Source: Acidimicrobiales bacterium (GTDB lineage Bacteria > Actinomycetota > Acidimicrobiia > Acidimicrobiales > Bog-793). Taken from it: a stretch of 48,648 nucleotides of DNA. The stretch spans positions 1-48,648 of the forward strand of contig JBAVUF010000160.1 in assembly GCA_049696635.1 (NCBI GenBank), written 5' to 3'. The stretch's first letter is position 1, and the number at the start of each line of letters is the position of its first letter. The position numbers and the translations under genes were made by a program. This document shows, in pieces, positions 3,179 through 22,987 of the stretch. The notes below the pieces were generated by a model. The model saw only the letters and a list, made by a program, of their open reading frames with translations, did not search any database and was not told where the DNA came from.

Positions 3179-5143
<1,965 letters not shown>

Positions 5144-5692: not shown

Positions 5693-5738
5693 ACCTTGCC
5701 AAGGTGAGGGTCGCGGGTTCGAGTCCCGTCGTCCGCTC
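5693..5738 (+). repeat. tRNA-Gly(GCC) 3' half, copy 1 (att-core-like; not a complete tRNA)
   Basis: ACCTTGCCAAGGTGAGGGTCGCGGGTTCGAGTCCCGTCGTCCGCTC. It reads as anticodon loop TTGCCAA, then GGTGA, variable loop GGGTC, T arm GCGGG/TTCGAGT/CCCGT, and acceptor 3' strand CGTCCGC plus T. CCA follows at 5738-5740. No GCGGACG acceptor 5' strand or D arm lies upstream. Confidence 0.8.
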
Positions 5739-5745
5739 CAAAAAC

Positions 5746-7184
5746 GGGTCTTCGGATTCTGGCGGGGGTCGAACGTGTTCATCGAACGACGATCGATCCG
5801 AGCACCCGCCAGTTCGGCTTGCCTGCATAGAGCAACGCCCGGATCCGGTAGTTCTCGAAGTTCCTGAAGCCGAAGCCGATCCGCTTGATGCGCTTCACAA
5901 GATTGTTGAGCGCTTCGGTCGGTCCGTTGCTCACCTTGGCGAGGTGGTAGTTGCAGATCTTGTCGAACCAGCGCTCGATCGTTTTGCCGAGACGCTGGAT
6001 CTCGGGTGGCATCGCCTTCTTGAGACAGTGGGACACGAGCTCTGAGAGCAGCTTTTTCGCCTCGTCGGCATCGTCGGTCTTGTAGAAGTCACGCAGGCGC
6101 TCTTTCACCCGATAGGCGATCGCCACCTCGGCACCCGGATCGCCGAGTGCGAGCAGCGACCACAGGCGCTCGCTCCGCTCTGTGTCGAGCTTCTCCTCGC
6201 CCATTAACAGCGTCCGCCTCACCCGATACAAAGGGTCGTCTTTTCGCCCGCGGTGATGGAGCTGTTCGATCTGCACCCGCCGGCGGATCTCGTCGAGACA
6301 ACGATTGGCGAGTGAGACGGCGTGGAAGGAGTCGACCACCTGGTGAGCCTTCGGCAGAACGACCGAGTAGACCGCCGCGTAGGTGGCCGACATGTCGAGT
6401 GCTCCGAATCTGATTCGCTCCTTCCAGCCCTTTTCCTGCTTGTGCAAAAAGCCCGCCACCTCGGTGAAGTTGCGCGAGGGCAGGATGTCGATGATCTGGT
6501 GGTGCTCGACGTCACAGACGGTCGTCGCGTAGTCGCGATGACTGTGGGATGAGAGCTTCACGAACGAGGTCTCGTCTAATCCGATCGCCGTCGTCTTGTT
6601 CAGCCGCTTGCGATCCGCCGCCAAGAGCGCTTTGCCGTAGGTGGTGACGGCGTCGTTCACGGTGTGCCAGTCACAGTCGAGCTCTTTTGCCACCTCCGAG
6701 ACCGTCCGTCCGCCGCCGACCTGCATCGTCGCCCACTTGGCGGCCCGGGTCGTGAGCAGACAGTTCTTTGCCGCGATGCGGTGGTCTTTGAGGACGAATG
6801 ACCTCCTTTCACAGTCCGGTTCGACGCAGCGCATGCGGTGCTTTTTCCACGAAAGGCGCATCGGCGTGCCATAGACGGGGAGATCGATGTAGGTGACGAC
6901 GGGACGCTCTTTCACCTCGGTGTGACCACGACAGGAGGGGCAGCGGACGTCGCCAACTACCTGCTCGATCAGCAACTCGACGTCCGGCCCGCGGCGTTTG
7001 TAGTGCAGGACCCGGACGTCTTTGAGGCCCACCAGCGCCTGGAGGATCTCGCTAGCGTGCGTGAGGACGAAGGTGCTTCGTGTTTGGTTGGTCACACTCC
7101 AAGCTTGGAGCGCCTTCGTTTCACTTTTCGAACCCGGCCCGAGCGCGGGCTAGCCGCTAACTCCCCGCTGAGATCCGAAGACCC
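5746..7184 (-). mobile_element. ISL3-family insertion sequence, apparently intact (1439 bp)
   Basis: The terminal inverted repeats are GGGTCTTCGGATTCTGGCGGGG (5746-5767) and the reverse complement of CCCCGCTGAGATCCGAAGACCC (7163-7184); the outer 12 nt are identical. The element is flanked by an 8-bp direct duplication CCAAAAAC (5738-5745 and 7185-7192) and carries a single transposase ORF. Confidence 0.9.
5779..7095 (-). CDS. ISL3 family transposase
   Basis: 438 aa. It has an N-terminal zinc-ribbon CPSCRGH...C..PDC and ISL3 blocks: GLDETSFVK, ALDMSATYAAV, QVVDSFHAVSLANRCLDEIRRRV, NGPTEALNNLVKRIKRIGFGFRNFENYRIRALL. Confidence 0.95.
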   Translation of the reverse strand: MTNQTRSTFVLTHASEILQALVGLKDVRVLHYKRRGPDVELLIEQVVGDVRCPSCRGHTEVKERPVVTYIDLPVYGTPMRLSWKKHRMRCVEPDCERRSFVLKDHRIAAKNCLLTTRAAKWATMQVGGGRTVSEVAKELDCDWHTVNDAVTTYGKALLAADRKRLNKTTAIGLDETSFVKLSSHSHRDYATTVCDVEHHQIIDILPSRNFTEVAGFLHKQEKGWKERIRFGALDMSATYAAVYSVVLPKAHQVVDSFHAVSLANRCLDEIRRRVQIEQLHHRGRKDDPLYRVRRTLLMGEEKLDTERSERLWSLLALGDPGAEVAIAYRVKERLRDFYKTDDADEAKKLLSELVSHCLKKAMPPEIQRLGKTIERWFDKICNYHLAKVSNGPTEALNNLVKRIKRIGFGFRNFENYRIRALLYAGKPNWRVLGSIVVR

Positions 7185-7192
7185 CCAAAAAC

Positions 7193-7275
7193 TCGCAGGT
7201 CACACTCGCAGGTCACACTCGCAGGTCACACTCGCAGGTCACTCGCAGGTCACTCGCAGGTCACTCGCAGGTCAG
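7193..7275. repeat. tandem array: 3 x TCGCAGGTCACAC (13-mer), 3 x TCGCAGGTCAC (11-mer), 1 x TCGCAGGTCAG
   Basis: Read directly from the sequence. There are seven head-to-tail copies of the core TCGCAGGTCA. The array starts immediately after the right target duplication of the IS, so before the IS insertion it began 8 nt after tRNA-half copy 1. Confidence 0.95.
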
Positions 7276-7332
7276 GGGCGGGTCAGGGCACCGTTTTCGT
7301 TTCCTCGCGCCGTGGGTCCATTTAGCGCAGTC

Positions 7333-7425
7333 CATATAGCGCGATGTCTGGCGGGTCCTGGGACTTGACACATATAGCGCGATGCGAGGCAGTTGGAATT
7401 GACCTGGAATTGACCTGGACGTTTC
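7333..7425. promoter_or_regulatory. second repeat cluster upstream of the AEP-helicase gene
   Basis: CATATAGCGCGATG occurs twice (7333-7346 and 7371-7384). TGGAATTGACC is tandem x2 (7394-7415). ACCTGGACGTTTC follows at 7413-7425 and matches 5675-5687 at 13/13 positions. The function (origin, arm sites or operator) is inferred. Confidence 0.5.
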
Positions 7426-7726: not shown

Positions 7727-10147
7727 GTGACGCGAGAATGTCAGGTGGTGAAGGCGCCAAGTAGTCGAGACGGCGCAGTGGACGAAGTTGTCGCGGCTTT
7801 ACGGCTCCGCATTGTCGAGCTGGAGGCTGAGAACGCGCGATTGCGACAGCTTCTCGATCACGACCACGCAAATCGCGGGCGATCCATCGCAACTTGGAGC
7901 CCGCGGCTCGTTGACCTCTCGCCATCGATACAGCGAGCTCCGGTTGACCACACCTCATCTCCGGCGGAAAAAGTCGCGCTCTTTCGCTCGCTTTTCCGGG
8001 GTCGCGAGGACGTCTACGCGATCCGCTGGGAGAACGCCAGGACCGGAAAGCACGGCTGGAGCCCAGCAGTGCGCGGTGGTGCAGCGAATGCTCGCAGACC
8101 GGACAGAGAGCTACTGCCGCTCACTGATGACGTCGTCACCGGTCATCTCCGCGGCGAGATCGAGATCGGCATGTATCCCCTTCTGCGCGATGACCATTGC
8201 GCCTTTCTCGCCTGCGACTTCGACGGCGCGAGCTCGGTGCTCGATGCCCTTGCCTTTCGCGACGCGGCGACCGCATCGGGCGTACCTTCCGCGATCGAGA
8301 GGTCTCGATCGGGTGCGGGCGCGCACGTCTGGATCTTCTTTGCCCAGCCCGTTCTGGCTGCGGACGCGCGGCGGATCGGCTTTCACCTCCTCCGGGAGGC
8401 GATGGCGGCTCGGGTAGAGCTTGATCTCTCGAGTTACGACCGTTTCTTTCCTGCGCAGGACCTACTGCCGAAGGGGACTTACGGAAATCTCATCGCGCTT
8501 CCGCTCCACAGTCGGCATCGTCGGCACGGCGCAACGATTTTCCTGGACCCAAAGACGCTTGATCCCTACGGCGATCAGTGGGAATTTCTTTCGTCGCTCC
8601 AATTGATGTCTGCCGAGCAAGTTGGCTCACTGGCGGCGCAGCTCGAGGATGTCGGAGCCGGACCGGAGGCCGCCACGTACCGCCGGTCGCGACTTGCGAC
8701 GGCGAATGACGTCAAGCCACCAGAGCGAGTGGTCGCGAAGGCCGGCGCGATGCTCGTCATCGACCGAATTGGACTTCCTCCCGCATTGGTCGCGTCACTC
8801 AAGCACCTAGCGTCGCTGCACAACCCGAAGTTCTACGAGAACGAGAGCCTCCGGTTCTCGAACCACGACACGCCGCGCTTCATTCGTTGCTACCAGGAGA
8901 GCCTCGGTGAGCTACTCGTGCCTCGAGGCCTCGAAGAACAGGCAAGCGCGATCGTTCAAGCAGCGGGGAGCCGTCTCGAGGTCCGCAAGGATGCGCCGCG
9001 AGCACAGCCTCAAGGCTTCGAGGTCAGCATCGCGCTGACACCAGAACAACAACGCGCGTTCGATGCGCTCGCCGGCCACGACCTCGGGGTGTTCGTCGCG
9101 CCGCCCGGAGCTGGCAAGACAGTGCTCGCGTGCGCGCTGATCGCCCATCACGACACACCAACCCTTGTGATCGTCGACCGCACGCCGCTCCTCGATCAGT
9201 GGCGAGCGCGTCTCAGCTCGCATCTGGGGCTCTCGGCAAGAGAGATTGGGCAATTGGGCGGCGGTCGCGACCGTCAGATCGGCAAGGTCGATCTCGCGAT
9301 GGCACAGAGCCTTGCTCGACGAGAGGACCTCGATGAACTCACGGCCGGCTACGGCTTCGTCGTGGTCGATGAGTGCCATCACGTCCCGGCGGTCACGTTT
9401 GAACGATGCGTTCGGCAGATACCCGCACTTCGATGGCTCGGCCTGACTGCGACGCCGTACCGCCGTGACGGATTGCAAGGTCTCATCAACATGTACTGCG
9501 GGCCGACGCGCGATGACGCGACCAAGCGTGACGCCCGCAGAGAGGCAATGCGGCTCCATCTGGTCGTTCACGAGACCCGACATGCTGAAGTCGATGACGG
9601 GCTCGGTATCCAGGAGACCTTTCGGCTGCTGGTCCAAGACGACGATCGCACCGATCAGATCTCTGCCGACGTGGTCGCCGCCAGAGATCGCGGGCGCAAT
9701 TCACTCGTCCTGACACAGTGGACGGAACATCTTGAGAGGATCGTCGAGTCACTCAATCGAAAGGGCGTCCAGGGCTTGGTACTCCGCGGGGGTATGGGCA
9801 AGAAGGCACGGGCAGCGGTCGTCGATCGTCTTACCGAGATGGGACTCGGCGCGGGCGAAGTACTCGTGGCGACCGGTGGCTATCTGGGCGAAGGTTTTGA
9901 CTGCCCGCAACTCGACGCGCTCTTCCTCGCGTTTCCGATCGCCTACAAGGGGCGGCTCATTCAGTACGTCGGTCGGGTCATGCGCGTTGCGCGTAGGAAA
10001 ACGGTTGTCGAGGTCCACGACTATTTGGACCGACAAGTGCCGGTGCTCCAACGGATGCACGGGAAGCGACTTCCCGTTTTTCGCGATCTCGGCTTCTTGT
10101 CGGCAGACTCCCAGCTCGAGGGCGCCCGCCTGCCCGGGGTTAGGTGA
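7727..10147 (+). CDS. archaeo-eukaryotic primase (AEP/PrimPol-like) domain fused to an SF2 helicase
   Basis: 806 aa. AEP motifs: LACDFDGAS (D164/D166), SGAGAHVWIFF (H200), SSYDRFFPAQD..YGNLIALPLH. Helicase motifs: APPGAGKT (Walker A), VVVDECHH (DECH), LGLTATPYR, QYVGRVMR. The N-terminus is heptad-like (LRLRIVELEAENARLRQLL). The exact start is uncertain (track start GTG 7727). Confidence 0.85.
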   Translation: MTRECQVVKAPSSRDGAVDEVVAALRLRIVELEAENARLRQLLDHDHANRGRSIATWSPRLVDLSPSIQRAPVDHTSSPAEKVALFRSLFRGREDVYAIRWENARTGKHGWSPAVRGGAANARRPDRELLPLTDDVVTGHLRGEIEIGMYPLLRDDHCAFLACDFDGASSVLDALAFRDAATASGVPSAIERSRSGAGAHVWIFFAQPVLAADARRIGFHLLREAMAARVELDLSSYDRFFPAQDLLPKGTYGNLIALPLHSRHRRHGATIFLDPKTLDPYGDQWEFLSSLQLMSAEQVGSLAAQLEDVGAGPEAATYRRSRLATANDVKPPERVVAKAGAMLVIDRIGLPPALVASLKHLASLHNPKFYENESLRFSNHDTPRFIRCYQESLGELLVPRGLEEQASAIVQAAGSRLEVRKDAPRAQPQGFEVSIALTPEQQRAFDALAGHDLGVFVAPPGAGKTVLACALIAHHDTPTLVIVDRTPLLDQWRARLSSHLGLSAREIGQLGGGRDRQIGKVDLAMAQSLARREDLDELTAGYGFVVVDECHHVPAVTFERCVRQIPALRWLGLTATPYRRDGLQGLINMYCGPTRDDATKRDARREAMRLHLVVHETRHAEVDDGLGIQETFRLLVQDDDRTDQISADVVAARDRGRNSLVLTQWTEHLERIVESLNRKGVQGLVLRGGMGKKARAAVVDRLTEMGLGAGEVLVATGGYLGEGFDCPQLDALFLAFPIAYKGRLIQYVGRVMRVARRKTVVEVHDYLDRQVPVLQRMHGKRLPVFRDLGFLSADSQLEGARLPGVR

Positions 10148-10288: not shown

Positions 10289-10855
10289 TCAGAGGAGAAC
10301 TGCTCCGAGTGCGTCCGCGGTCCTCGGAAGTCCGCGCTGACGAACAATGTCGATCGCGTCCGTCATCGTTGTGGGTGGTTTGCGAAGATCGTTCACTTGC
10401 TCTTGGAACACTGTCGCGACAACTGCGGGATTGAGATCGAATAGTCCCAACACGAACTCGTCCGGATGCACGGCTTCGATGTCGAACGGAACCAGTGCCT
10501 CTTCGGGGAAATCCGAGAGGTTCTCGGTAACGATGGCTTGGGCTTGCGCCTTGATTGCACAGGCAACGACGTGACGATCCTTGGGGTCTGGAAGGACGAC
10601 CGCGTCGATCAATTGCCGGAAGTCCGTCACGAGGCAGTCGGCCACTGATTCGTTCATCATCTCCCGTGTGCGTTGCAAGCGATGTTCGTCGAGATCGGGC
10701 CGCCGGCGCAGAATCGACCGCACCATTTCGTCCAGAATCTCGTCGGACCGGTGGGCACGGAAATTCAGCTGCCGCTTGGTCGCGCAGCGGATTAACAGAT
10801 CTCGGATTGCTGGATCGTGCAGCACACAGGCGTCGTAAACGACGACGTAGGCCAC
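10289..10855 (-). CDS. PIN-domain protein (putative toxin ribonuclease)
   Basis: 188 aa. The N-terminal VVVYDACVL, the PDPKDRHVVACA block and the TENLSDF block match the usual PIN acidic-residue spacing. It lies 8 nt downstream of a DNA-binding partner gene. Confidence 0.75.
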   Translation of the reverse strand: MAYVVVYDACVLHDPAIRDLLIRCATKRQLNFRAHRSDEILDEMVRSILRRRPDLDEHRLQRTREMMNESVADCLVTDFRQLIDAVVLPDPKDRHVVACAIKAQAQAIVTENLSDFPEEALVPFDIEAVHPDEFVLGLFDLNPAVVATVFQEQVNDLRKPPTTMTDAIDIVRQRGLPRTADALGAVLL

Positions 10856-10863
10856 GAACCGAC

Positions 10864-11334
10864 CTACGACTTGTAAAGGCCGAGCTCTTCCGCCTCCCGT
10901 GTCAACGTGCGTTGCCTCTCGCGGCGTTGTTCCTCGTCCGCTCGTTGGTAAGCCAGAAGATCGGCCAGCCGAACCCGGCGGTGCGTGCCGACCTTCCGGT
11001 AGGGAAGGGCACCCGCTTCGAGGAGACTGATTAGATAAGGTCGAGAGACGTTGAGCAGCTCCGCTGCCTGTTGCGTGGTGAGTTCTTGATGAACCGGAGC
11101 CACCACAACCGCGTTGCCCCTCGCAAGCTCGTCGAGCACATCGATGAGGAGCCTGAAAGCAGGTGCGGGGATGTTTACCTTCGTCTCAGGTGCATCGTCG
11201 ACCACGAGCACGACGCGTCCGGACGGTGTCGGGTGGCGTCGTAGGTGGGTTGCCAACGCCTCGGCAGCGTCGGCAGCCCAGGCAGTGGTCTCATCATCTG
11301 GGATTGTCAGGTCTTGCAAATTTACGGCGGGCAT
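10864..11334 (-). CDS. excisionase-type HTH DNA-binding protein (putative antitoxin of the PIN gene; alternatively an Xis)
   Basis: The C-terminal HTH is LTTQQAAELLNVSRPYLISLLEAGALPYRKVGTHRRVRLADLLAY. I chose ATG 11334 (MPAVNLQDL). The 218-aa track ORF extends upstream into the tRNA-half region, and that extension is unlikely to be coding. Confidence 0.7.
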   Translation of the reverse strand: MPAVNLQDLTIPDDETTAWAADAAEALATHLRRHPTPSGRVVLVVDDAPETKVNIPAPAFRLLIDVLDELARGNAVVVAPVHQELTTQQAAELLNVSRPYLISLLEAGALPYRKVGTHRRVRLADLLAYQRADEEQRRERQRTLTREAEELGLYKS

Positions 11335-11540
11335 GTCGCGAGTCTGACACAGGGATATATCAAACGCAATAGACGAAACAAACGAATCAGACGAAACCGG
11401 GTCGGTCAGGTCACCGAACGCCAGCACGTAGCAGACCCGTCTACAACAAGGCGCAGGTATTCGGGCCACCTCGGTGGACTGTCGGGGCGACTCAGCCGCC
11501 CTCCAGGCCGCGCAAGGCAACTAGCTGGACGTTCGCAAGC

Positions 11541-11612
11541 ACCTGCCAAGGTGAGGGTCGCGGGTTCGAGTCCCGTCGTCCGTCGTCGTCCGTCGTCGTC
11601 CGTCGTCCGCTC
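11541..11612 (+). repeat. tRNA-Gly(GCC) 3' half, copy 2, with an internal microsatellite expansion
   Basis: ACCTGCCAAGGTGAGGGTCGCGGGTTCGAGTCCC, then GTCGTCC GTCGTCGTCC GTCGTCGTCC GTCGTCC, then GCTC. Relative to copies 1 and 3, one T of the anticodon loop is missing and 27 nt are added inside the acceptor strand. Confidence 0.8.
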
Positions 11613-13433: not shown

Positions 13434-13457
13434 CGCGACCTTTTGCGACACGCCGCG

Positions 13458-13669
13458 CGCTGGGAGAACACCCGCAGCGGCAAGCACGGTTGGAGCCCTG
13501 CGGTGCGCGGCAGCGTACAGAGCGCTCGCAAGCCAGATCGAGAGCTACTGCCGCTCGCAGATGACGTCGCTACGCTCAGGTTGTCGGCGATAACGAGATC
13601 AGGATGAGTGCCCTGCTGCGAGATGATCGTTGCGACTTCCTTGCGAGCGACTTCGACGGCGCTGGCTCG
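13458..13669 (+). pseudogene. decayed fragment of a second AEP-helicase gene (paralog of 7727..10147)
   Basis: RWENTRSGKHGWSPAVRGSVQSARKPDRELLPLADDV matches RWENARTGKHGWSPAVRGGAANARRPDRELLPLTDDV at 29/37 positions. After a frameshift, LLRDDRCDFLASDFDGAGS matches LLRDDHCAFLACDFDGASS at 15/19. Weaker resemblance may continue to about 13760. No helicase part follows. Confidence 0.75.
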
Positions 13670-16825: not shown

Positions 16826-17269
16826 TCAGGCACCAGCTTCGAGACGCTCCTTCAGCCGCCGCTGGTCTTGTGGCACCAATTTTCTCGACTGGCTTCGTGC
16901 TATCGGCGCTACGAGCTTGCCGAGCAAACCGTGTCCTTGAAGGTCGAGTTCTATGGTGACTCTTGAACTGCCTGTCCCGACAGGATCGACGGTCACCGTT
17001 CCGACAGGTCGCACTGGTCCGTTCGTGCCTTTGAAGGAAGCCCTTCTCGGAGGGTCGTGCTCCGTGATCTCGTACGTGACGCTCCGCTTGCCACCTGGCA
17101 CCTTGCGGACGTCTGTTACGCGGGTGCCAACGCGCGTGGGTCCATCGGTTTCTTTCTTTGAGCTAACGATCTGGGACTCAAATTCGCCGTGTCGTTCTAG
17201 CTGATCGAGATAGGCGAACACGTCCGCAGGAGTACGTGCGATCTCCACACTGTTCACGATCTTTGGCAT
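16826..17269 (-). CDS. SRPBCC (polyketide cyclase/START-like) family protein
   Basis: MPKIVNSVEIARTPADVFAYLDQLERHGEF...YEITEHDPPRRASFKGTNGPVRPVGTVTVDPVG fits the SRPBCC pattern. I prefer the internal ATG 17269 over the track start 17392. Confidence 0.75.
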   Translation of the reverse strand: MPKIVNSVEIARTPADVFAYLDQLERHGEFESQIVSSKKETDGPTRVGTRVTDVRKVPGGKRSVTYEITEHDPPRRASFKGTNGPVRPVGTVTVDPVGTGSSRVTIELDLQGHGLLGKLVAPIARSQSRKLVPQDQRRLKERLEAGA

Positions 17270-17484
17270 GTTCGTGAGCGTGACGGTTGGAACATGAAAA
17301 GTCAATAAGGGATTAGGAGGCGGCGTAGGTTCCACAGCTATCTGTCTCCGATTAATAGAGTTCAAGTAAATGCGGAAGTCTTCGCAATCCACGACAGACA
17401 GTTCGTCTGGTGGATGCCGATTCGCCGTCGGCGCTCGGCTCCGGGAATCGGGTGCAGTCGACTTCCGAGAGCAAGACTGTGCGA

Positions 17485-17958
17485 ATGACGAATCCCAGCT
17501 ACTCAGAGTCGACCGTGATCGCCCGTCCGGCAGAGTTGCTCTATGACATGGTCTCCGACGTCACTCGAATGGGCGAATGGAGTCCAGTTTGCAAAGCCTG
17601 CTGGTGGGACGAGGGCGATGGCCCCCGAGTGGGTGCTCGGTTCACAGGTCGCAATGAGACCTCTGAACGAACGTGGGAAACACGTTCGGAAGTCGTGGCG
17701 GCAGATCGAGGGCGCGAATTCGCGTTTGTCGTTGGTGACTCATGGGTTCGTTGGGGCTACACGTTCACCCCGGATGAAGGTGGGACGAAGGTCACTGAGT
17801 CATGGGAGTTCCTCCCGGCTGGTATCGCACGATTCGAGCAGCGATTCGGTGGTGACGCTCTCGCCCAGATTGCTGATCGAACCGAGGCTGCCCATCAGGG
17901 GATTCCAGCGACCCTTTCTGCAATCAAGAGGGCAGCAGAATCGGGTGGCGCTACGTGA
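17485..17958 (+). CDS. SRPBCC family protein
   Basis: MTNPSYSESTVIARPAELLYDMVSDVTRMGEWSP...WETRSEVVAADRGREFAFVV...WGYTF fits the family. I prefer ATG 17485 over the track start 17410. Confidence 0.75.
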   Translation: MTNPSYSESTVIARPAELLYDMVSDVTRMGEWSPVCKACWWDEGDGPRVGARFTGRNETSERTWETRSEVVAADRGREFAFVVGDSWVRWGYTFTPDEGGTKVTESWEFLPAGIARFEQRFGGDALAQIADRTEAAHQGIPATLSAIKRAAESGGAT

Positions 17959-18189
17959 TCGTGCAGATATGTGAGTTCATTTAATTCAGTTCAAGTAAAC
18001 GCAGGTCCGGCGACTGCACAGCTGCACAGCTGCGCGTCAAGCGCTAATGCGAGCCATTCGTAACGTGCTCGCGACAAAGCTTCCGACGAGAATCGGGTCA
18101 TCGCAGAGAGAGCTAACCGATCGGGTCGCCACGAGCATCCGCACGACGAGCCGAACCGTCACGATGACGAGCACGGTTTTGGCCACTTT

Positions 18190-18420
18190 TTGCGCGACTT
18201 GATCGCACCTCACTCGCACGACGCAACCGACTCACTCGATCAGGCGCTCGAATCCAGCACCGATGGGATTCGAGCGGTTGCCTTGTGGCTCGTCATTCTC
18301 CTCGTCACGGCCGGGATCGAAGCTCTCGTCGTGGCGGCGACCGGATCGGTAGCCCTCCTCAGCGACACTCTTCACAATGCTGCCGACGCGCTAACAGCCG
18401 TGCCGTTGTGGCTCGCGTTC
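18190..18420 (+). pseudogene. cation diffusion facilitator (CzcD-type) transporter, first ~77 codons only
   Basis: ...HSHDATDSL...GIRAVALWLVILLVTAGIEALVVAATGSVALLSDTLHNAADALTAVPLWLAFTL is a CDF TM1-TM2 region including the HxxxD-type motif. The gene stops being CDF-like exactly where tRNA-half copy 3 begins. Confidence 0.7.
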
Positions 18421-18466
18421 ACCTTGCCAAGGTGAGGGTCGCGGGTTCGAGTCCCGTCGTCCGCTC
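18421..18466 (+). repeat. tRNA-Gly(GCC) 3' half, copy 3
   Basis: 46/46 identical to copy 1. With the two preceding nt (TC) it makes a perfect anticodon arm, TCACC-TTGCCAA-GGTGA. The 3' end reads ..CCGCTCGA, so no CCA is encoded. No acceptor 5' strand or D arm lies upstream; CDF coding sequence is there instead. Confidence 0.8.
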
Positions 18467-18536
18467 GAAGAACTCCCAGCTCAGAAGCCTAATTCAGCAT
18501 CGTTTGAGGCATTGATTTGCGGATAACGGTCCTTCT

Positions 18537-18569
18537 TGACCCAACTGTGACCCAACTGTGACCCAAACG
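18537..18569. repeat. tandem 11-mer TGACCCAACTG x2 plus a degenerate third copy TGACCCAAACG
   Basis: Read directly. It lies 70 nt after copy 3. Confidence 0.9.
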
Positions 18570-18745
18570 AGTCGCCGAGGCAAGCGCTAACGGGAAAGTT
18601 CGGCGAGAGCATCGGCGATCATTCGATCTCGGTCCTCGGCATGATCACCGGCGAACGATTTTCCCAGGCAGTTGGCGAGCTGAGAAGATCTGGGGTGCGC
18701 CGTGGTGGGAAGCCGGAGTACTCGAAGACGTCCGAGAAGGACGCC

Positions 18746-18925
18746 GTGACGAAAACCATCTCCGACGCAGATTCGCGACACCCCGTCAACTGCAGCTTCT
18801 GTGGCAAGTCGCAGAATCAGGTCAAAAGGATCGTCGCTGGACCCGATGATGTTTACATCTGCAATGAGTGCGTCGATCTCTGTTTGTTACTAATGGCCGA
18901 ACCATCCGATGGCGCCGGGACATAA
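18746..18925 (+). CDS. stand-alone ClpX-type C4 zinc-finger protein (or N-terminal remnant of clpX)
   Basis: [31 protein letters not shown] matches the ClpX N-terminal zinc-binding domain, with the CxxC...CxxC spacing. No AAA+ module follows. I prefer GTG 18746, preceded by GAGAAGGA, over the track start 18641. Confidence 0.55.
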
Positions 18926-19141
18926 ACGTAGATCAGCTCGTCGTCGGCATACTCGGGCGCAATTAGTCGATTGCCGAATCCGCTCACCGTTTGATAATGC
19001 CTTGGTGGGGTGACGCCGACGTGTCGTTGGTGGGCACTCGATAATCGGTGGGTGCGCTCCGTGTAACTGCATCCTTAATCAACTTGCCGTCGTGCTGATG
19101 GAGGCTGGGGAAGGAAGGTCCTCCGGAGCAAAGGCGCTCAA

Positions 19142-19612
19142 CTAACTCCTGATCAGATACAGCTCGACCGTGCCGCTGTTCGAGTTGACGACGTTCAGTT
19201 CCTCACTCCAGCCGTTGCCGAAGTTCTTCGTGTGCTTCCCAGGTGCACCGGAAGTGAACACGTTGTTCGTCCAGGTTCCTGCGGACTTGCCGATGTAGTA
19301 ATCGGCGAGCGCAATCATCGTGATGCCGCCCATCAGCAACTGATCACTCGTGGCGTTGTCAATGTGCAGATACCACAAAGAGATCCCTTTCGGCGCTGCA
19401 AGCGCCTTCCAGGCCATGCCTTCCTCGTTAATGGCGCACGTTCCGTACATTGCGTGGGCGCCGTCGTCAGTTACGGACCGCCAGTGCAAGCCGGGGACGT
19501 TCGCATTGATCTTCGCCTGTTCACTCGACACGTTTGTCGAGGCTCCCGCTGTCGTCACGGCAAGCATCAACGTCATGCCCACGATGACGAGTCCTACGAC
19601 GAATTTCCTCAT
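19142..19612 (-). CDS. secreted hypothetical protein
   Basis: 156 aa with a clear signal peptide (MRKFVVGLVIVGMTLMLAVTTAGA). I recognise no family. Confidence 0.6.
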   Translation of the reverse strand: MRKFVVGLVIVGMTLMLAVTTAGASTNVSSEQAKINANVPGLHWRSVTDDGAHAMYGTCAINEEGMAWKALAAPKGISLWYLHIDNATSDQLLMGGITMIALADYYIGKSAGTWTNNVFTSGAPGKHTKNFGNGWSEELNVVNSNSGTVELYLIRS

Positions 19613-19849
19613 CTCTGCTCCTGCACAGAACGCTCGTTGATAGCTCTGAAGGACCTCAATTTAAGAAGTTGCGTTTCGTCAACGATGATCCAGCGAGTAT
19701 GCGAGCGCATCGGCAATTTTGAAGATGAGGGAATGCGAACCGCAAGTCCCTATTCAAACGAGGGATTTCACGAAGAGCATCGACTCGACTACGGAATGTG
19801 CTCTTTGTGATCGAAACCTCGCCGTGTCTGCGCTAGCGAGAAGATTGAT

Positions 19850-20017
19850 TTACAAGACGCTGACCAACAATAAAAGTACGAGCGATAGCACGATGATTAC
19901 GACAAGAACAGCACGCCACGGATGGCGGCGTCGAGGAACGTCCTCGTGATCATCGTCCCAGTCCCAAAGATCGGGGTCCTTCGGGTCCCGGGGTACGGGA
20001 CCCACGGGCGTCGGCAT
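19850..20017 (-). CDS. small single-pass membrane protein (hypothetical, 55 aa)
   Basis: Below the track's size cut-off. My translation is MPTPVGPVPRDPKDPDLWDWDDDHEDVPRRRHPWRAVLVVIIVLSLVLLLLVSVL: an acidic N-terminus followed by one TM. Its ATG lies 6 nt after the stop of the upstream 147-aa ORF. Confidence 0.3.
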   Translation of the reverse strand: MPTPVGPVPRDPKDPDLWDWDDDHEDVPRRRHPWRAVLVVIIVLSLVLLLLVSVL

Positions 20018-20023
20018 CGACCG

Positions 20024-20467
20024 CTAAAGGTCGATCTCGATCGACTGACCTTGCCATTCGACCGTCAACGACTTTGCGTCCGTGTGCGCATGCTCATCTT
20101 CGGACTTCGAGGGAACGAAAAACCTCCTACCCGCCAACTCGCCAGCCGCTTTTCGCTCGAAATCACTCAGTGCCGACACGTGTTGAGGCCCACCTTTGAA
20201 CGAAACCTTTACGATCGCACGTTCTCGGCCGCGTCGAATTGATTCGCCGAGTGGTCGCATTCGGACTCTCGCAGACTTTGCGGAATAAGGACCCGGCCGT
20301 GCAACCGTGGGACCTTCGACAAGTTCACCGACATCGGGAACACCAGAGAGACGCCACATCACTTCGATGCCATCGTCGTAAAGCAATACTCCGACGACAC
20401 GGAACGTAATTCCTTGTGAGGTGAGAGTCTCCGAAGGTCCTGAGATGGCCTTTAACGGGTGCGCCAA
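20024..20467 (-). CDS. hypothetical protein (147 aa)
   Basis: An ORF with no recognisable motif. The TTG start is uncertain. Its 5' end abuts the truncation point of the serine-recombinase fragment. Confidence 0.45.
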   Translation of the reverse strand: MAHPLKAISGPSETLTSQGITFRVVGVLLYDDGIEVMWRLSGVPDVGELVEGPTVARPGPYSAKSARVRMRPLGESIRRGRERAIVKVSFKGGPQHVSALSDFERKAAGELAGRRFFVPSKSEDEHAHTDAKSLTVEWQGQSIEIDL

Positions 20468-20794
20468 GTGCTCGGAGCGATCTCGCAGTACGAGCGTGCC
20501 GTGATCAAGGGCCGCATGATGGCGGGCAAAGCGGCAAAGGTCGCAAGTGGCGGCTACGGCGGTGGCAGACCGGCGTTCGGCAAAGCGGCGAAGGACAAAT
20601 CATTCGTCGGCGACATTGAGGAGCGCCAGACGATCGAGCTGATCCGTCGACTTCGTAGCGAGCGATTATCGCTGCGCCAAATTGCCGGATATCTCGAACA
20701 GGCGGGGCTGCACTCGAAATCAGGGCAACACTGGTACCCAACACGGGTAAAGCGAGTGCTCGACAGAACTAGCGACGCAAGATCAAAGTCTTGA
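20459..20794 (+). pseudogene. serine recombinase fragment (end of the resolvase domain plus part of the recombinase domain; catalytic N-terminus missing)
   Basis: RQVLGAISQYERAVIKGRMMAGKAAKVASGGYGGGRPAFG matches the E-helix end of the resolvase domain. LIRRLRSERLSLRQIAGYLEQAGLHSKSGQHWYPTRVKRVL matches the recombinase-domain HTH. The catalytic Ser region is absent. Confidence 0.7.
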
Positions 20795-20947
20795 AGTCAG
20801 CGACCCCGCTCGCTACGACTAGTTCGATTTGCTCAACTTGAGTTGGCTCTTTCGAGCTAATTCCAACCTTTTTCTTTCTCTTCCCACTACGACGACGTCA
20901 AACTCCAACGAGTTGGGGCTCCCCAACAAGAGAGAAGGAATCGGACA

Positions 20948-21670
20948 ATGGGCATACGTTCAGCGCAACACTTCAGAATACGAACTGGAGCGCAAAACCT
21001 AAAGGAGCGACCTGCGCCACTGCGGAAGGGGTTGCTCATTGCCGCTGCAGTACTTATAACCGGACTCGTCGCCATCCCAACTACAGCACTTGCGTCCGAT
21101 CGGGGTACCCACAATGGCGACCATCACCACGGTAAGCAGCAGAACGGCGAGCAGCACAACGCCCCAGGATTGAGCTATCCGTGGGTCTACACTTTCGACA
21201 ACAACAGCGGGCCAGACTCTGGCTACTGCACCAGTTACACGAATGCTTGGGCGAACGACAGGTACTCACGCACGTTCGTTGTTATCCCGCAGGCGAACGG
21301 CAGCTATCTCGTCGACGAAAGCTTTACGGGAACATTTGTCACGATCGCTGGTAATCCACAACCGAACGCTTCGCCTTGCGGGGCGACAGAGACAGGTGGC
21401 GTGAAAGGTAACTACGTCGGCACTGAATCCTTTACGATCAGCGGACCGGTGGAGTTCAATCCCGACGCCACGTGCGTCGCATGCAATGCGACTACGACAA
21501 ACTCGTCATCTGCCGAGGCTGGTAATGCCACCTTCGTGGCAGCGTTCTTCCCTGGCGGCACGTACAGCGGAGTCGGTAACTTCGACTTCCGGTACACGAC
21601 GAATCACGACGGCTCGTGGATCGATTCGATCGCTACTCCACAAGCTTCGAGCGGTAACATCACCGGCTGA
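20948..21670 (+). CDS. secreted hypothetical protein (His/Gln-rich N-terminal region)
   Basis: 240 aa with a signal-like segment (LLIAAAVLITGLVAIPTTALA) followed by NGDHHHGKQQNGEQHN. A terminator hairpin follows the gene. I recognise no family. Confidence 0.6.
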   Translation: MGIRSAQHFRIRTGAQNLKERPAPLRKGLLIAAAVLITGLVAIPTTALASDRGTHNGDHHHGKQQNGEQHNAPGLSYPWVYTFDNNSGPDSGYCTSYTNAWANDRYSRTFVVIPQANGSYLVDESFTGTFVTIAGNPQPNASPCGATETGGVKGNYVGTESFTISGPVEFNPDATCVACNATTTNSSSAEAGNATFVAAFFPGGTYSGVGNFDFRYTTNHDGSWIDSIATPQASSGNITG

Positions 21671-21692
21671 CGCTCAGACAGCTTCGTAACCG

Positions 21693-21735
21693 AAATCCCC
21701 CGGTCTCGTAATGGAGGCCGGGGGATTTTGTTTTA
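21693..21735 (+). terminator. rho-independent terminator
   Basis: AAATCCCCCGGTCTC-GTAATG-GAGGCCGGGGGATTT followed by TGTTTT, 23 nt after the stop at 21670. Confidence 0.7.
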
Positions 21736-22447
21736 CCGTCGCACGAATCAAGGCGGGCGCCTTCATCCCACGAACGACTGATTCGGAGCTTTGTGCGAAG
21801 ACGGGCACCATGTTCCGCCCTTGTCCTTCTGGCCCATCAGCCGCCTCCGATCGATGACCGATCAAGCCGTTTACGTCAAAACCGCACTCAAGGGCAAGCA
21901 AGAGTCGTCTGTCAATTCTGCGATCACTTGAACGCGATGCCACTAGTTGAAGGGTTGGTGACCAACAACTACAAGATGCTTCGAAGTCTGTCTGAGTTGG
22001 CGGCGATCTGTTCGACGCACCTGACGATCGTGGCGATACAGCGACTCGGCGACGACGCGACGCGCGCGTCGGGGGCGATCCTTCTCGATCTTCCTGGCAT
22101 CATGCGTCGTCGTAAACCTGGCACAGCACAAGTCTCTTGGATGCGGCCAAGAGATCCGGCTCCTCAAAAGCCATGGGATGTATTCAAGTTGGCAGCGGTT
22201 CGCGCGAAACGTGATGCGGTCGAACTGTACGACGAGTTGAGGGTCACAACAGCCGAGAGGCTCGTGGAGGGCGAGCTAGCTGAGAAGCCCAGCCTGGTGC
22301 GATCTCTTAGATAAGAGCCAGGACCGGGCTCTCCTCGAGTTAGCCGCGCGTTTCGACGCGCACGCGGAGCAGCGGATCACGATCTCCAATGGGAAACACC
22401 CGGTTGGGACTTTCGTCCCATTAACTGTCCTCCCCGAAAAGGTCGTA

Positions 22448-22987
22448 TTGAAAGGCACAACTCTCAAAAGGAGGCTTCCGCCAATGAGCGAGCGACCGGA
22501 AGCACAAACGGCGACGCGAGGTGGCGAGCAGAGCGCCGCGATGTCGCGGGCCACGCAAGAGCTTCTAAGGCTGATTCCGAAAGCGGACGGATGCGCCGTC
22601 CTACTCGTCGTCGAAGACCAATTGGTCGAGGCATGTCGAGCAGGCAACCTTGGCGAACCCGAGCAGGGCCGATTGGGCATCAATGAGAGCCTGTCCGGGC
22701 TTGCATTACTAAGCGGCTCGGCTTTCCGCTGTGACGACGCCGCAGAGAGCCCGTTCGTCGACCACTCCACGACCAGGCGACTCGGCGTCGCCTCCTTTGT
22801 GAGCGTTCCATTGCGGGATGGAATTCGAGCGGCCGGAGTTTTCATTGCAGCTTCGAAAGAGCGAGCAGCATTCAACGATCGCGACGTCGAGATCCTCGGT
22901 CGCGCCGCCCACTCATTGGAGGACGAACTCGCGCCTCGCGCGAGGAGGATGCGACGCTTCGCGCGCGGTAAGCAAGGGCTTGCGTAA
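22448..22987 (+). CDS. GAF domain protein
   Basis: ADGCAVLLVVEDQLVEACRAGNLG...SLSGLALLSGSAFRCDDAESPFVD...GVASFVSVPLRDGIRAAGVFIAASKERAAFNDRDVEILGRAAHSLE is a GAF-like pattern. The start is uncertain; ATG 22484 is possible. Confidence 0.6.
   Translation: MKGTTLKRRLPPMSERPEAQTATRGGEQSAAMSRATQELLRLIPKADGCAVLLVVEDQLVEACRAGNLGEPEQGRLGINESLSGLALLSGSAFRCDDAAESPFVDHSTTRRLGVASFVSVPLRDGIRAAGVFIAASKERAAFNDRDVEILGRAAHSLEDELAPRARRMRRFARGKQGLA

Follow-up and report, generated by a model that had tools for sequence, protein, structure and literature searches.

A stand-alone AEP-SF2 gene on a small island of an Acidimicrobiales bacterium belongs to the IEE family

The 48,648-nt stretch of DNA considered here (contig JBAVUF010000160.1 of the Acidimicrobiales bacterium assembly GCA_049696635.1, hereafter the window) carries at positions 7727-10147 an intact gene in which an archaeo-eukaryotic primase (AEP) domain is fused to a superfamily 2 (SF2) helicase-like domain. 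The original prediction, made from the sequence alone, had presented it as a candidate uncharacterised system for which no experimental characterisation was known. Actually, the gene is a new, distant member of an already characterised family, since its product is a full-length homolog of the Escherichia coli O157:H7 protein IEE (IS-excision enhancer), which has been studied both genetically and biochemically (PMC9943667). We put at about 0.72 the probability that the open reading frame (ORF) encodes a stand-alone IEE-family protein, carried by a mobile element, in which a DNA polymerase of the Z1568-like AEP type is coupled to a DNA-dependent ATPase of the XPB-like SF2 type, with a likely IEE-like mechanism. 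Family membership, conservation of the catalytic residues, domain architecture and genomic context were read directly from this gene and its surroundings, and are laid out below from the following features.

7727-10147, plus strand: AEP-SF2 gene (IEE family), an uninterrupted 806-codon frame from the first GTG
7958-8626, plus strand: AEP polymerase domain (Z1568-like or AEP-TOTE), aa 78-300, from PF22548, a CRISPR-associated PrimPol (CAPP) profile match and residues mapped onto IEE
8726-8989, plus strand: alpha/beta module, conserved, aa 334-421, lying after the AEP domain and before the ATPase core, from conservation, predicted fold and Foldseek
9029-10096, plus strand: SF2 ATPase core with two RecA lobes, aa 435-790, from ResIII, Helicase_C and profile and fold matches

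The real start of the gene is probably the GTG at 7778, which gives 789 aa, because the database gene call has that length, residues 1-17 are unconserved and the alignment to E. coli IEE begins at about this point. In the 806-aa product, each motif that had been described for the intact fusion lies at the residue described. The polymerase half contains D164-F-D166 and S195-G-A-G-A-H200-V-W, followed by S235-S-Y-D238-R-F-F and G253-NLIALPLH261, with the N-terminal block F90-RGREDVYAIRWE...GKHGWSPA114 (FRGREDVYAIRWE...GKHGWSPA) ahead of these motifs. The SF2 half contains G461-AGKT465, D548-ECH551, T574-ATP577 and Q746-xxGR750-xxR753 (QYVGRVMR, 746-753), with K464 in motif I, DECH 548-551 as motif II and R750 in motif VI as key residues. 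Profile searches confirmed the AEP fold predicted for the N-terminal region, with Pfam PF22548 (AEP-TOTE) matching aa 81-300 at E=3e-77 (259.6 bits vs a cutoff of 27), and assigned ResIII to aa 435-579 and Helicase_C to aa 652-754.

Against IEE of E. coli O157:H7, BLASTP returned a single collinear high-scoring segment pair joining aa 32-790 of the window protein to aa 13-775 of IEE, with 38% identity and E=2e-156. This alignment takes in the inter-domain region as well as the N-terminal helix, whose motif LRAENxRL is kept across the family and in E. coli IEE (LRAENARL in the window protein). Residues D142, D144, H178, D216, Y128, K451 and R735 of IEE correspond to D164, D166, H200, D238, Y150, K464 and R750, respectively, and the DECH of IEE aligns with D548-ECH551. 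By this mapping, D164, D166 and D238 are the metal ligands of the AEP domain, with H200 alongside, and Y150 is the sugar selector. In a 77-sequence alignment that included E. coli IEE and plasmid homologs, the six mapped catalytic residues (D164, D166, H200, D238, K464 and R750) are invariant in all 77 members, and H551 and R753 deviate in one sequence each. The selector Y150, a tyrosine and not the histidine of rNTP-preferring AEPs, is invariant in a separate 50-sequence alignment (A1) and in the pairwise alignment with IEE. The window protein thus has every sequence-level mark of the IEE family, namely the AEP motifs A (hDhD), B (sxH) and C (hD), the selector tyrosine, the SF2 motif I lysine, the DExH box, the motif VI arginine finger and full-length collinearity.

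Regarding the predicted structure, an AlphaFold2 model built from 50 homologs reached a mean predicted local distance difference test (pLDDT) score of 80.5 and a predicted template modelling (pTM) score of 0.66. It displays a long N-terminal helix at aa 14-42, which agrees with the heptad-like N-terminus noticed earlier, then a disordered spacer (aa 49-66), a confident AEP domain and two RecA lobes. The stretch of about 170 aa joining the two enzymatic halves had been taken for a linker of unknown function; its aa 334-421 instead form a conserved, folded alpha/beta module, mostly predicted with confidence except for a low-confidence loop at 372-386. Column conservation of this module is 0.60 vs 0.63-0.68 in the enzymatic domains (77-sequence alignment); being as well conserved as these, the former linker is therefore a domain. 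Foldseek alignments to archaeal XPB cover it over its entire length, and it is probably the counterpart of the XPB N-terminal accessory domain, as judged from alignment lengths. The structure prediction and fold search that had been called for thus gave a fold to the former linker and an XPB-like character to the ATPase half. For the latter, profile searches of the Protein Data Bank (PDB) and Foldseek agree in placing XPB (archaeal XPB, TFIIH), UvsW, RadD and the double-stranded DNA translocases ISWI, INO80 and FANCM nearest. The AEP half is nearest to the Marinitoga CRISPR-associated PrimPol (PDB 7NQD/7NQE/7NQF; profile E=4e-15). This picture matches the HHpred results given for IEE in Chandler et al., and the XPB-like translocase fold is consistent with an ATPase that would grip duplex DNA without unwinding it, as in IEE.

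IEE is a protein of 786 aa composed of a Z1568-like AEP domain (residues 1-290) and an SF2 helicase-like domain (PMC9943667). It boosts excision of IS629 and other insertion sequences (IS) of the IS3, IS1 and IS30 families by orders of magnitude; adjacent deletions accompany this effect, which is strictly transposase-dependent (Kusumoto et al., 2011, as cited in PMC9943667 and bioRxiv 10.1101/2023.06.07.543989). The IS whose excision it promotes belong to the copy-out-paste-in, circle-forming type, and ISL3 is counted among the circle-forming families (bioRxiv 10.1101/2023.06.07.543989). In vitro, IEE behaves as a Mn2+-dependent, error-prone and dNTP-preferring DNA polymerase, for which D142/D144 are essential and in which Y128 replaces the rNTP-selecting histidine; it dislocates primer and template and performs microhomology-mediated end joining of 3' overhangs, for which both domains are required, and it is a DNA-dependent ATPase (K451) with no unwinding activity and no primase activity reported (Calvo et al., 2023; PMC9943667).

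The same enzymatic activities, together with a role in IS excision in the Acidimicrobiales host, are likely for the window protein by homology to O157:H7 IEE. Its AEP domain would be a Mn2+-dependent, dNTP-preferring and error-prone polymerase tolerating primer and template dislocation, and its SF2 domain would grip duplex DNA and bring two 3' ends together, so that the two jointly could anneal microhomologies and then extend them. Acting alongside the transposase of a circle-forming (copy-out-paste-in) IS, such a protein would bring about excision of the IS and adjacent deletions. The presence of an intact ISL3 element 540 nt upstream of the gene is a context in keeping with this reading.

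Several points weigh against it. Identity to the characterised IEE is only 38%, and function is deduced here from sequence. Demonstrations that IEE stimulates excision concern the IS3, IS1 and IS30 families and do not extend to ISL3, and the ISL3 copy of the window is intact with its target duplication and therefore offers no excision footprint. The neighbours of the homologs are mostly toxin-antitoxin (TA) and Abi-type genes rather than IS elements, and the curators of the AEP-TOTE domain place it in conflict systems. Besides, the physiological role of IEE itself is debated, between end joining after transposase cleavage and strand switching during copy-out.

The gene resides on a small, decayed, tRNA-Gly-related island together with a PIN/HTH TA-like pair (HTH for helix-turn-helix), with no recognisable integrase and with a later ISL3 insertion. 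The features that define this island and its surroundings are listed here.

5693-5743, plus strand: tRNA-Gly 3'-half copy 1, att-like, left bracket (repeat search)
5738-7192, minus strand: ISL3-family IS (inverted repeats, junctions in the sequence, Pfam)
5779-7095, minus strand: ISL3 transposase, intact, 438 aa (Pfam DDE_Tnp_ISL3, E=3e-59)
7191-7283, no strand assigned: tandem array, three 13-nt and four 11-nt copies of ACTCGCAGGTC(AC), then degenerate copies (TRF, period 13, 6.9 copies)
7333-7417: short direct repeats after the tandem array, CATATAGCGCGATG twice and GGAATTGACCT twice
10289-10855, minus strand: PIN_3 protein, putative toxin of a TA-like pair (Pfam, E=1e-9)
10864-11520, minus strand: HTH_17 DNA-binding protein, putative antitoxin or excisionase-type regulator (Pfam, E=2e-12)
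11544-11610, plus strand: tRNA-Gly 3'-half copy 2, right bracket (39 nt exact, 11544-11582)
13449-13669, plus strand: frameshifted fragment of a second IEE-family gene, aa 97-170 (tblastn, 62-68% aa identity, E=1.6e-21; 79% nt identity)
18394-18466, plus strand: intact tRNA-Gly(GCC), source of the att-like repeats (ARAGORN; 46-nt identity with copy 1)

A perfect direct repeat of 39 nt (5697-5735 and 11544-11582) encloses the IS, the repeat field, the IEE-family gene and the PIN and HTH genes. The 3' half of tRNA-Gly(GCC) occurs three times in the window, vs zero expected by chance, and ARAGORN recognises an intact tRNA neither at 5693 nor at 11544, the sole intact tRNA-Gly being the one at 18394. 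Copies 1 and 2 have in common a non-tRNA left flank (CTAnCTGGACGTT), and both therefore resemble junctions between an element end and an att core. At its 3' end (11574-11610), copy 2 has a 10-nt unit of acceptor-stem origin (CGTCGTCCGT) repeated in tandem about three times, which looks like an expansion of slipped-strand type at the junction. Both partial copies lie upstream of the plus-strand intact gene, a non-canonical layout for tRNA-integrated elements behind which a rearrangement is likely. A relative with 75% identity (locus L007) has the canonical layout, that is an intact tRNA-Gly, an integrase, the IEE homolog and a 51-nt partial copy 15.2 kb off.

The ISL3 element, the sole IS among the window ORFs scanned, is delimited by 22-bp inverted repeats (5746-5767 and 7163-7184) and flanked by CCAAAAAC, the duplicated 8-bp target, found at 5738-5745 and at 7185-7192. 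As a secondary event it inserted cleanly, precisely where the tRNA-like repeat meets the tandem array; until then, the array directly adjoined the att-like repeat. The AEP-SF2 gene had been called the only large intact gene of its element, a statement with which the 438-aa transposase in the same bracketed segment is at odds. The description of the neighbours holds, with the repeat field upstream at 7191-7283 and convergent PIN_3 and HTH_17 genes downstream; the real start of the HTH_17 gene is probably about 40 codons into its ORF. Likewise real is the decayed second copy that had been spotted at 13458 (frameshifted, 13449-13669), and its position in the next segment is consistent with a second IEE-bearing island having decayed there. 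As for the stand-alone status of the gene, it agrees with the Pfam scan, since in the ORFs that were scanned no replication, conjugation or partition gene was recognised, either within about 10 kb or more widely over the first 22 kb.

This architecture of about 790 aa is common to more than 7,700 proteins, spread over Actinomycetota, Nitrospirota, Elusimicrobiota, Binatia, Acidobacteriota, Verrucomicrobiota and Proteobacteria, with Mycobacterium, Nocardia, Arthrobacter and Pseudonocardia among the cultured carriers. This spread matches the wide distribution published for IEE (bioRxiv 10.1101/2023.06.07.543989), whose homologs are reported in many phyla, including Actinobacteria and Verrucomicrobia (PMC9943667; bioRxiv 10.1101/2023.06.07.543989). 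The nearest relatives of the window protein, at 75-76% identity, come from metagenome-assembled genomes (MAGs) of Acidimicrobiales. In E. coli, a homolog is present in 521 of 5,426 complete genomes, O157:H7 among them, and goes in RefSeq under the name of TOTE conflict system archaeo-eukaryotic primase domain-containing protein.

Gene neighbourhoods were compared over 81 loci (the window and 80 homologs; homolog loci bear the prefix L below), with all-vs-all clustering of 4,025 flanking ORFs. No neighbour cluster occurs in more than 13 of the 81 loci, and a multi-gene system was accordingly rejected; the search for a conserved neighbourhood across homologs, proposed beforehand, yielded no conserved partner. 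The surroundings of the homologs are rich in mobile elements. Pfam was further run in batch on 132 flanking ORFs, the nearest with 200 aa or more, and the 25 commonest families, each seen at least twice, were listed. These include AbiEii, integrases, AlbA_2/HATPase_c_4, Fic and PD-(D/E)xK proteins; transposases are not among these recurrent nearest large neighbours, so that an IS enrichment near the homologs is unsupported. TA-type pairs recur, namely HTH_17-PIN_3 beside the IEE gene in six loci plus the window (in those six, the PIN_3 cluster is directly upstream of the IEE gene and the HTH homologs have 177 aa), TacA-GNAT in eight loci, Gp49/HigB-HTH in six and, elsewhere, AbiEi/AbiEii, RelE/ParE and VapBC.

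In 21 of the 81 loci, the IEE gene lies in an island bracketed by tRNA-derived repeats, defined as exact direct repeats of at least 25 nt with a tRNA T-loop signature (25-55 nt in the repeats found), with tRNA-Gly, tRNA-Pro and tRNA-Met among the targets. These islands have a median size of 4.6 kb, and the integrase cluster is represented in just 3 of the 21. Several hold nothing but a labelled TA pair and the IEE gene, as do the 3.7-kb TacA-GNAT-IEE islands (L042, L045, L049; positions 8.9-12.6 kb) and the 4.1-kb HTH-PIN-IEE islands next to tRNA-Met (L057, L065, L074; positions 8.4-12.6 kb). The HTH-PIN-IEE order is also that of the cultured Mycobacterium kyorinense, to which the MAG loci L057, L065 and L074, where the att repeats were mapped, are related. 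In L042, tandem arrays and mobilisation in trans are suggested by an integrase immediately beyond the repeat.

In Proteobacteria, the surroundings are those of transposition and recombination modules. In Pantoea and E. albertii, the homolog has tnpR on one side and a tnpA of the Tn3 family (or its DUF4158 N-terminal fragment) on the other; in Sphingobium and Sinorhizobium it comes directly after tniQ, and in Paracoccus it lies beside three tandem tyrosine recombinases. The corresponding segments are:

L086 8361-12268; L087 8361-14298; L089 4976-10454; L097 3778-7415; L090 7896-13975: Proteobacterial plasmid loci with Tn3, tniQ or tyrosine-recombinase contexts

In O157:H7, iee follows an inovirus-Gp2-type gene, and the same island has an integrase, IS elements and urease genes. 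Across E. coli chromosomes and one plasmid (L092 9283-12361; L093 9283-12361; L094 7271-10356), the inovirus-type Gp2 gene is always found about 155 nt upstream of iee, and a DUF3987/YfjI gene and an HTH gene come before Gp2, an order that suggests a conserved island backbone.

From these contexts, it can tentatively be imagined, as a rather doubtful extension of the family's known role, that IEE-family genes are not host genes but accessory factors devoted to mobile elements. In Actinomycetota, they repeatedly form the main cargo of mostly integrase-less att-bracketed islands (21/81), sometimes with a TA pair, and in Proteobacteria they are located in or beside transposition modules (tnpR-iee-tnpA, after tniQ, three tyrosine recombinases), which are the two grounds for the idea. 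If so, the polymerase and end-synapsis activity would help to process intermediates of recombination or transposition in many classes of element, and maintenance or trans-mobilisation of mini-islands resembling cis-mobilisable elements (CIMEs) would be equally possible; the role would then not be limited to excision of IS3, IS1 and IS30 elements. No description of these TA, mini-island, Tn3 and TniQ associations was found in the IEE literature searched.

Among the other explanations to be weighed, an enzyme for general repair of double-strand breaks or gaps, by microhomology end joining of Pol-theta or LigD type and to the benefit of the element or of the host, would make IS excision merely one consequence of its activity. 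The in vitro repertoire of IEE fits it, since end joining at microhomologies, gap filling and limited strand displacement are all displayed (PMC9943667), as do the resemblance of the ATPase half to the repair proteins XPB and RadD, the unrelated PrimPol AgaPP, which derives from a mobile genetic element and both replicates and repairs (PMC11724360), and the fact that the commonest neighbours of the homologs are not IS elements. However, the strong phenotype in E. coli is transposase-dependent and IS-specific, with only marginal effects of mutations in host repair genes (bioRxiv 10.1101/2023.06.07.543989), and the patchy occurrence on mobile elements is unlike that of a core repair gene, so that we hold this explanation unlikely. 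An effector of a conflict (defence) system, either of TOTE type or made of a single gene, which would sense or attack the nucleic acid of an invading phage or plasmid, appears quite improbable. That a widespread family of such fusions has been linked by comparative genomics to conflict systems was correctly stated in the original prediction, as the domain is named AEP-TOTE in Pfam and TOTE conflict system AEP in both Pfam and RefSeq; in addition, the top PADLOC match is the CRISPR-associated PrimPol profile (E=1.5e-83) and the neighbours of the homologs are rich in AbiE, PIN, Fic, Schlafen/AlbA_2, NYN, WYL and restriction-modification genes. Yet TA neighbours are just as typical of mobile-element maintenance, and the partners after which TOTE is named are absent from the ORFs scanned at 1-22 kb of the window and from the 25 commonest families of the 132 flanking ORFs, with no conserved partner cluster in the 81 loci. 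A TOTE system was thus rejected for the window gene despite the name of its domain family. The PADLOC scan gave the profile match but no system model for the full protein, and no anti-phage phenotype of IEE was found in the literature searched. The idea of a single-gene effector directed at mobile DNA was nonetheless the closest in spirit of those first advanced, because IEE acts on insertion sequences; what does not carry over is the defence system, IEE being no demonstrated one and fitting no PADLOC system model.

The other idea first advanced, a replication initiator or primosome of a small integrative island with the upstream array of 11-13-nt repeats as iterons or origin, is highly improbable. 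The gene is enclosed by tRNA-derived att-like repeats, the seven-copy array with a period of roughly one helical turn lies 440-540 nt upstream of it, and AEP-helicase fusions typically serve mobile elements as replicases (PMC5862659), all of which speak for a replicon, but upstream arrays of at least three copies were detected by TRF in just 4 of the 81 loci (besides the window, only L021, L025 and L039), and iterons as a family-wide feature were rejected on this count. A tblastn search of 50,697 phage records returned no full-length homolog, with matches to the helicase half alone at 24-30% identity, and a phage origin was likewise rejected. For the 98 full-length plasmid matches listed, the carrier plasmids range from 47 kb to 1.4 Mb. 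Several of those inspected are assigned a different replicon type: an IncFII RepA is annotated on pDSJ06, other types are given for pESA134_1 and pLS1-1, and in two of those inspected the replicon is of IncF type, which led to the rejection of a plasmid Rep. Copies within Tn3 (tnpR-iee-tnpA) and beside tniQ belong to elements without autonomous replication, the ATPase is an XPB-like SF2 enzyme and not a hexameric superfamily 3 (SF3) or DnaB-type helicase, and the characterised IEE is without unwinding, with no primase activity reported by Calvo et al. (PMC9943667).

Elsewhere in the window, the Pfam scan found thiC (3182-5143) and a weak YCII-like ORF upstream of the ISL3 element and, beyond the HTH_17 gene, a 3-hydroxyisobutyrate-dehydrogenase-like gene, a DAO-family oxidoreductase, an S8 peptidase and two SRPBCC proteins; the large ORFs scanned in the rest of the window are housekeeping genes. 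The distance from thiC to the IEE homolog is a few kb at most in the window and also in the 75%-identical relative L001 (12511-14346), with a different order and a different IS between the two each time. At 17000-22500, around and after the intact tRNA-Gly, the GC content falls to 0.55-0.58 vs 0.62-0.68 elsewhere and several ORFs have no Pfam match; this region may be another island.

Placing the gene in the IEE family swaps a speculative new defence system for a function backed by the literature, that of a polymerase-ATPase promoting the loss of IS together with adjacent deletions, which bears on the control of IS load by the genome and on the decay of its islands. The family is burdened by conflicting names: Pfam and RefSeq label it TOTE conflict system AEP or DEAD/DEAH box helicase, experimental papers call it IEE, and PADLOC recognises its AEP domain solely as a CRISPR-associated PrimPol, so that the characterised function can escape those who rely on automated annotation. 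Mini-islands that recurrently combine a TA pair and an IEE gene, as well as the placement in or beside Tn3 and TniQ modules, offer leads to the debated physiological role of IEE.

When compared with known systems, the window protein has in common with TOTE systems, which comprise TPR, OB, TBP and Effector components (Aravind, Iyer and Burroughs, 2022, as cited in PMC12458937), an AEP domain classified in PF22548, the Pfam family named after them. It differs in standing alone, with an SF2 ATPase joined to the would-be effector, and TPR, OB (cold-shock-type) and TBP genes are not recurrent near the 80 sampled relatives. CAPP from Marinitoga (7NQD/7NQE/7NQF) provides the closest solved structure for the AEP half, in line with the PADLOC hit named PrimPol, CAS-associated (1.5e-83), whereas the NCBIfam model NF040561 scores the window protein at 82.8 vs a cutoff of 200 and the C-terminal partner is an XPB-like ATPase, not the Cas1/Cas2/reverse transcriptase (RT) of CAPP; no cas genes were found among the scanned neighbours in the window and no CRISPR-like array was seen in its first 22 kb. 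The replicative AEP-helicase fusions (pRN1 ORF904, D5-like and DUF3987 primase-helicases, and Pri-Rep of phage-inducible chromosomal islands, PICI) likewise combine an AEP and a P-loop NTPase on mobile elements. Their counterpart in the window has an ATPase of SF2 type (XPB, RadD and UvsW-like), neither SF3 nor DnaB-like, PriCT and Zn-binding domains were not detected in it, and the IEE-family protein is not the Rep of its carrier plasmids, the characterised member being without unwinding. With IEE of E. coli O157:H7 (ECs1305), the differences concern the host and the setting: IEE belongs to Enterobacteriaceae, whereas the nearest relatives of the window protein are in Acidimicrobiales MAGs, and it resides on a large island with tellurite and urease genes and DUF3987/YfjI and Gp2-type neighbours, whereas the window has a tRNA-Gly-related remnant of about 4-6 kb with a PIN/HTH pair. 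The likeness extends to everything else compared, namely the three parts (N-terminal helix, Z1568-like AEP domain, and accessory module with SF2 ATPase), the length class (786 aa in IEE vs 789-806 aa in the window), all mutationally or structurally defined residues, and the status of a stand-alone gene on an integrative island within an IS-containing region.

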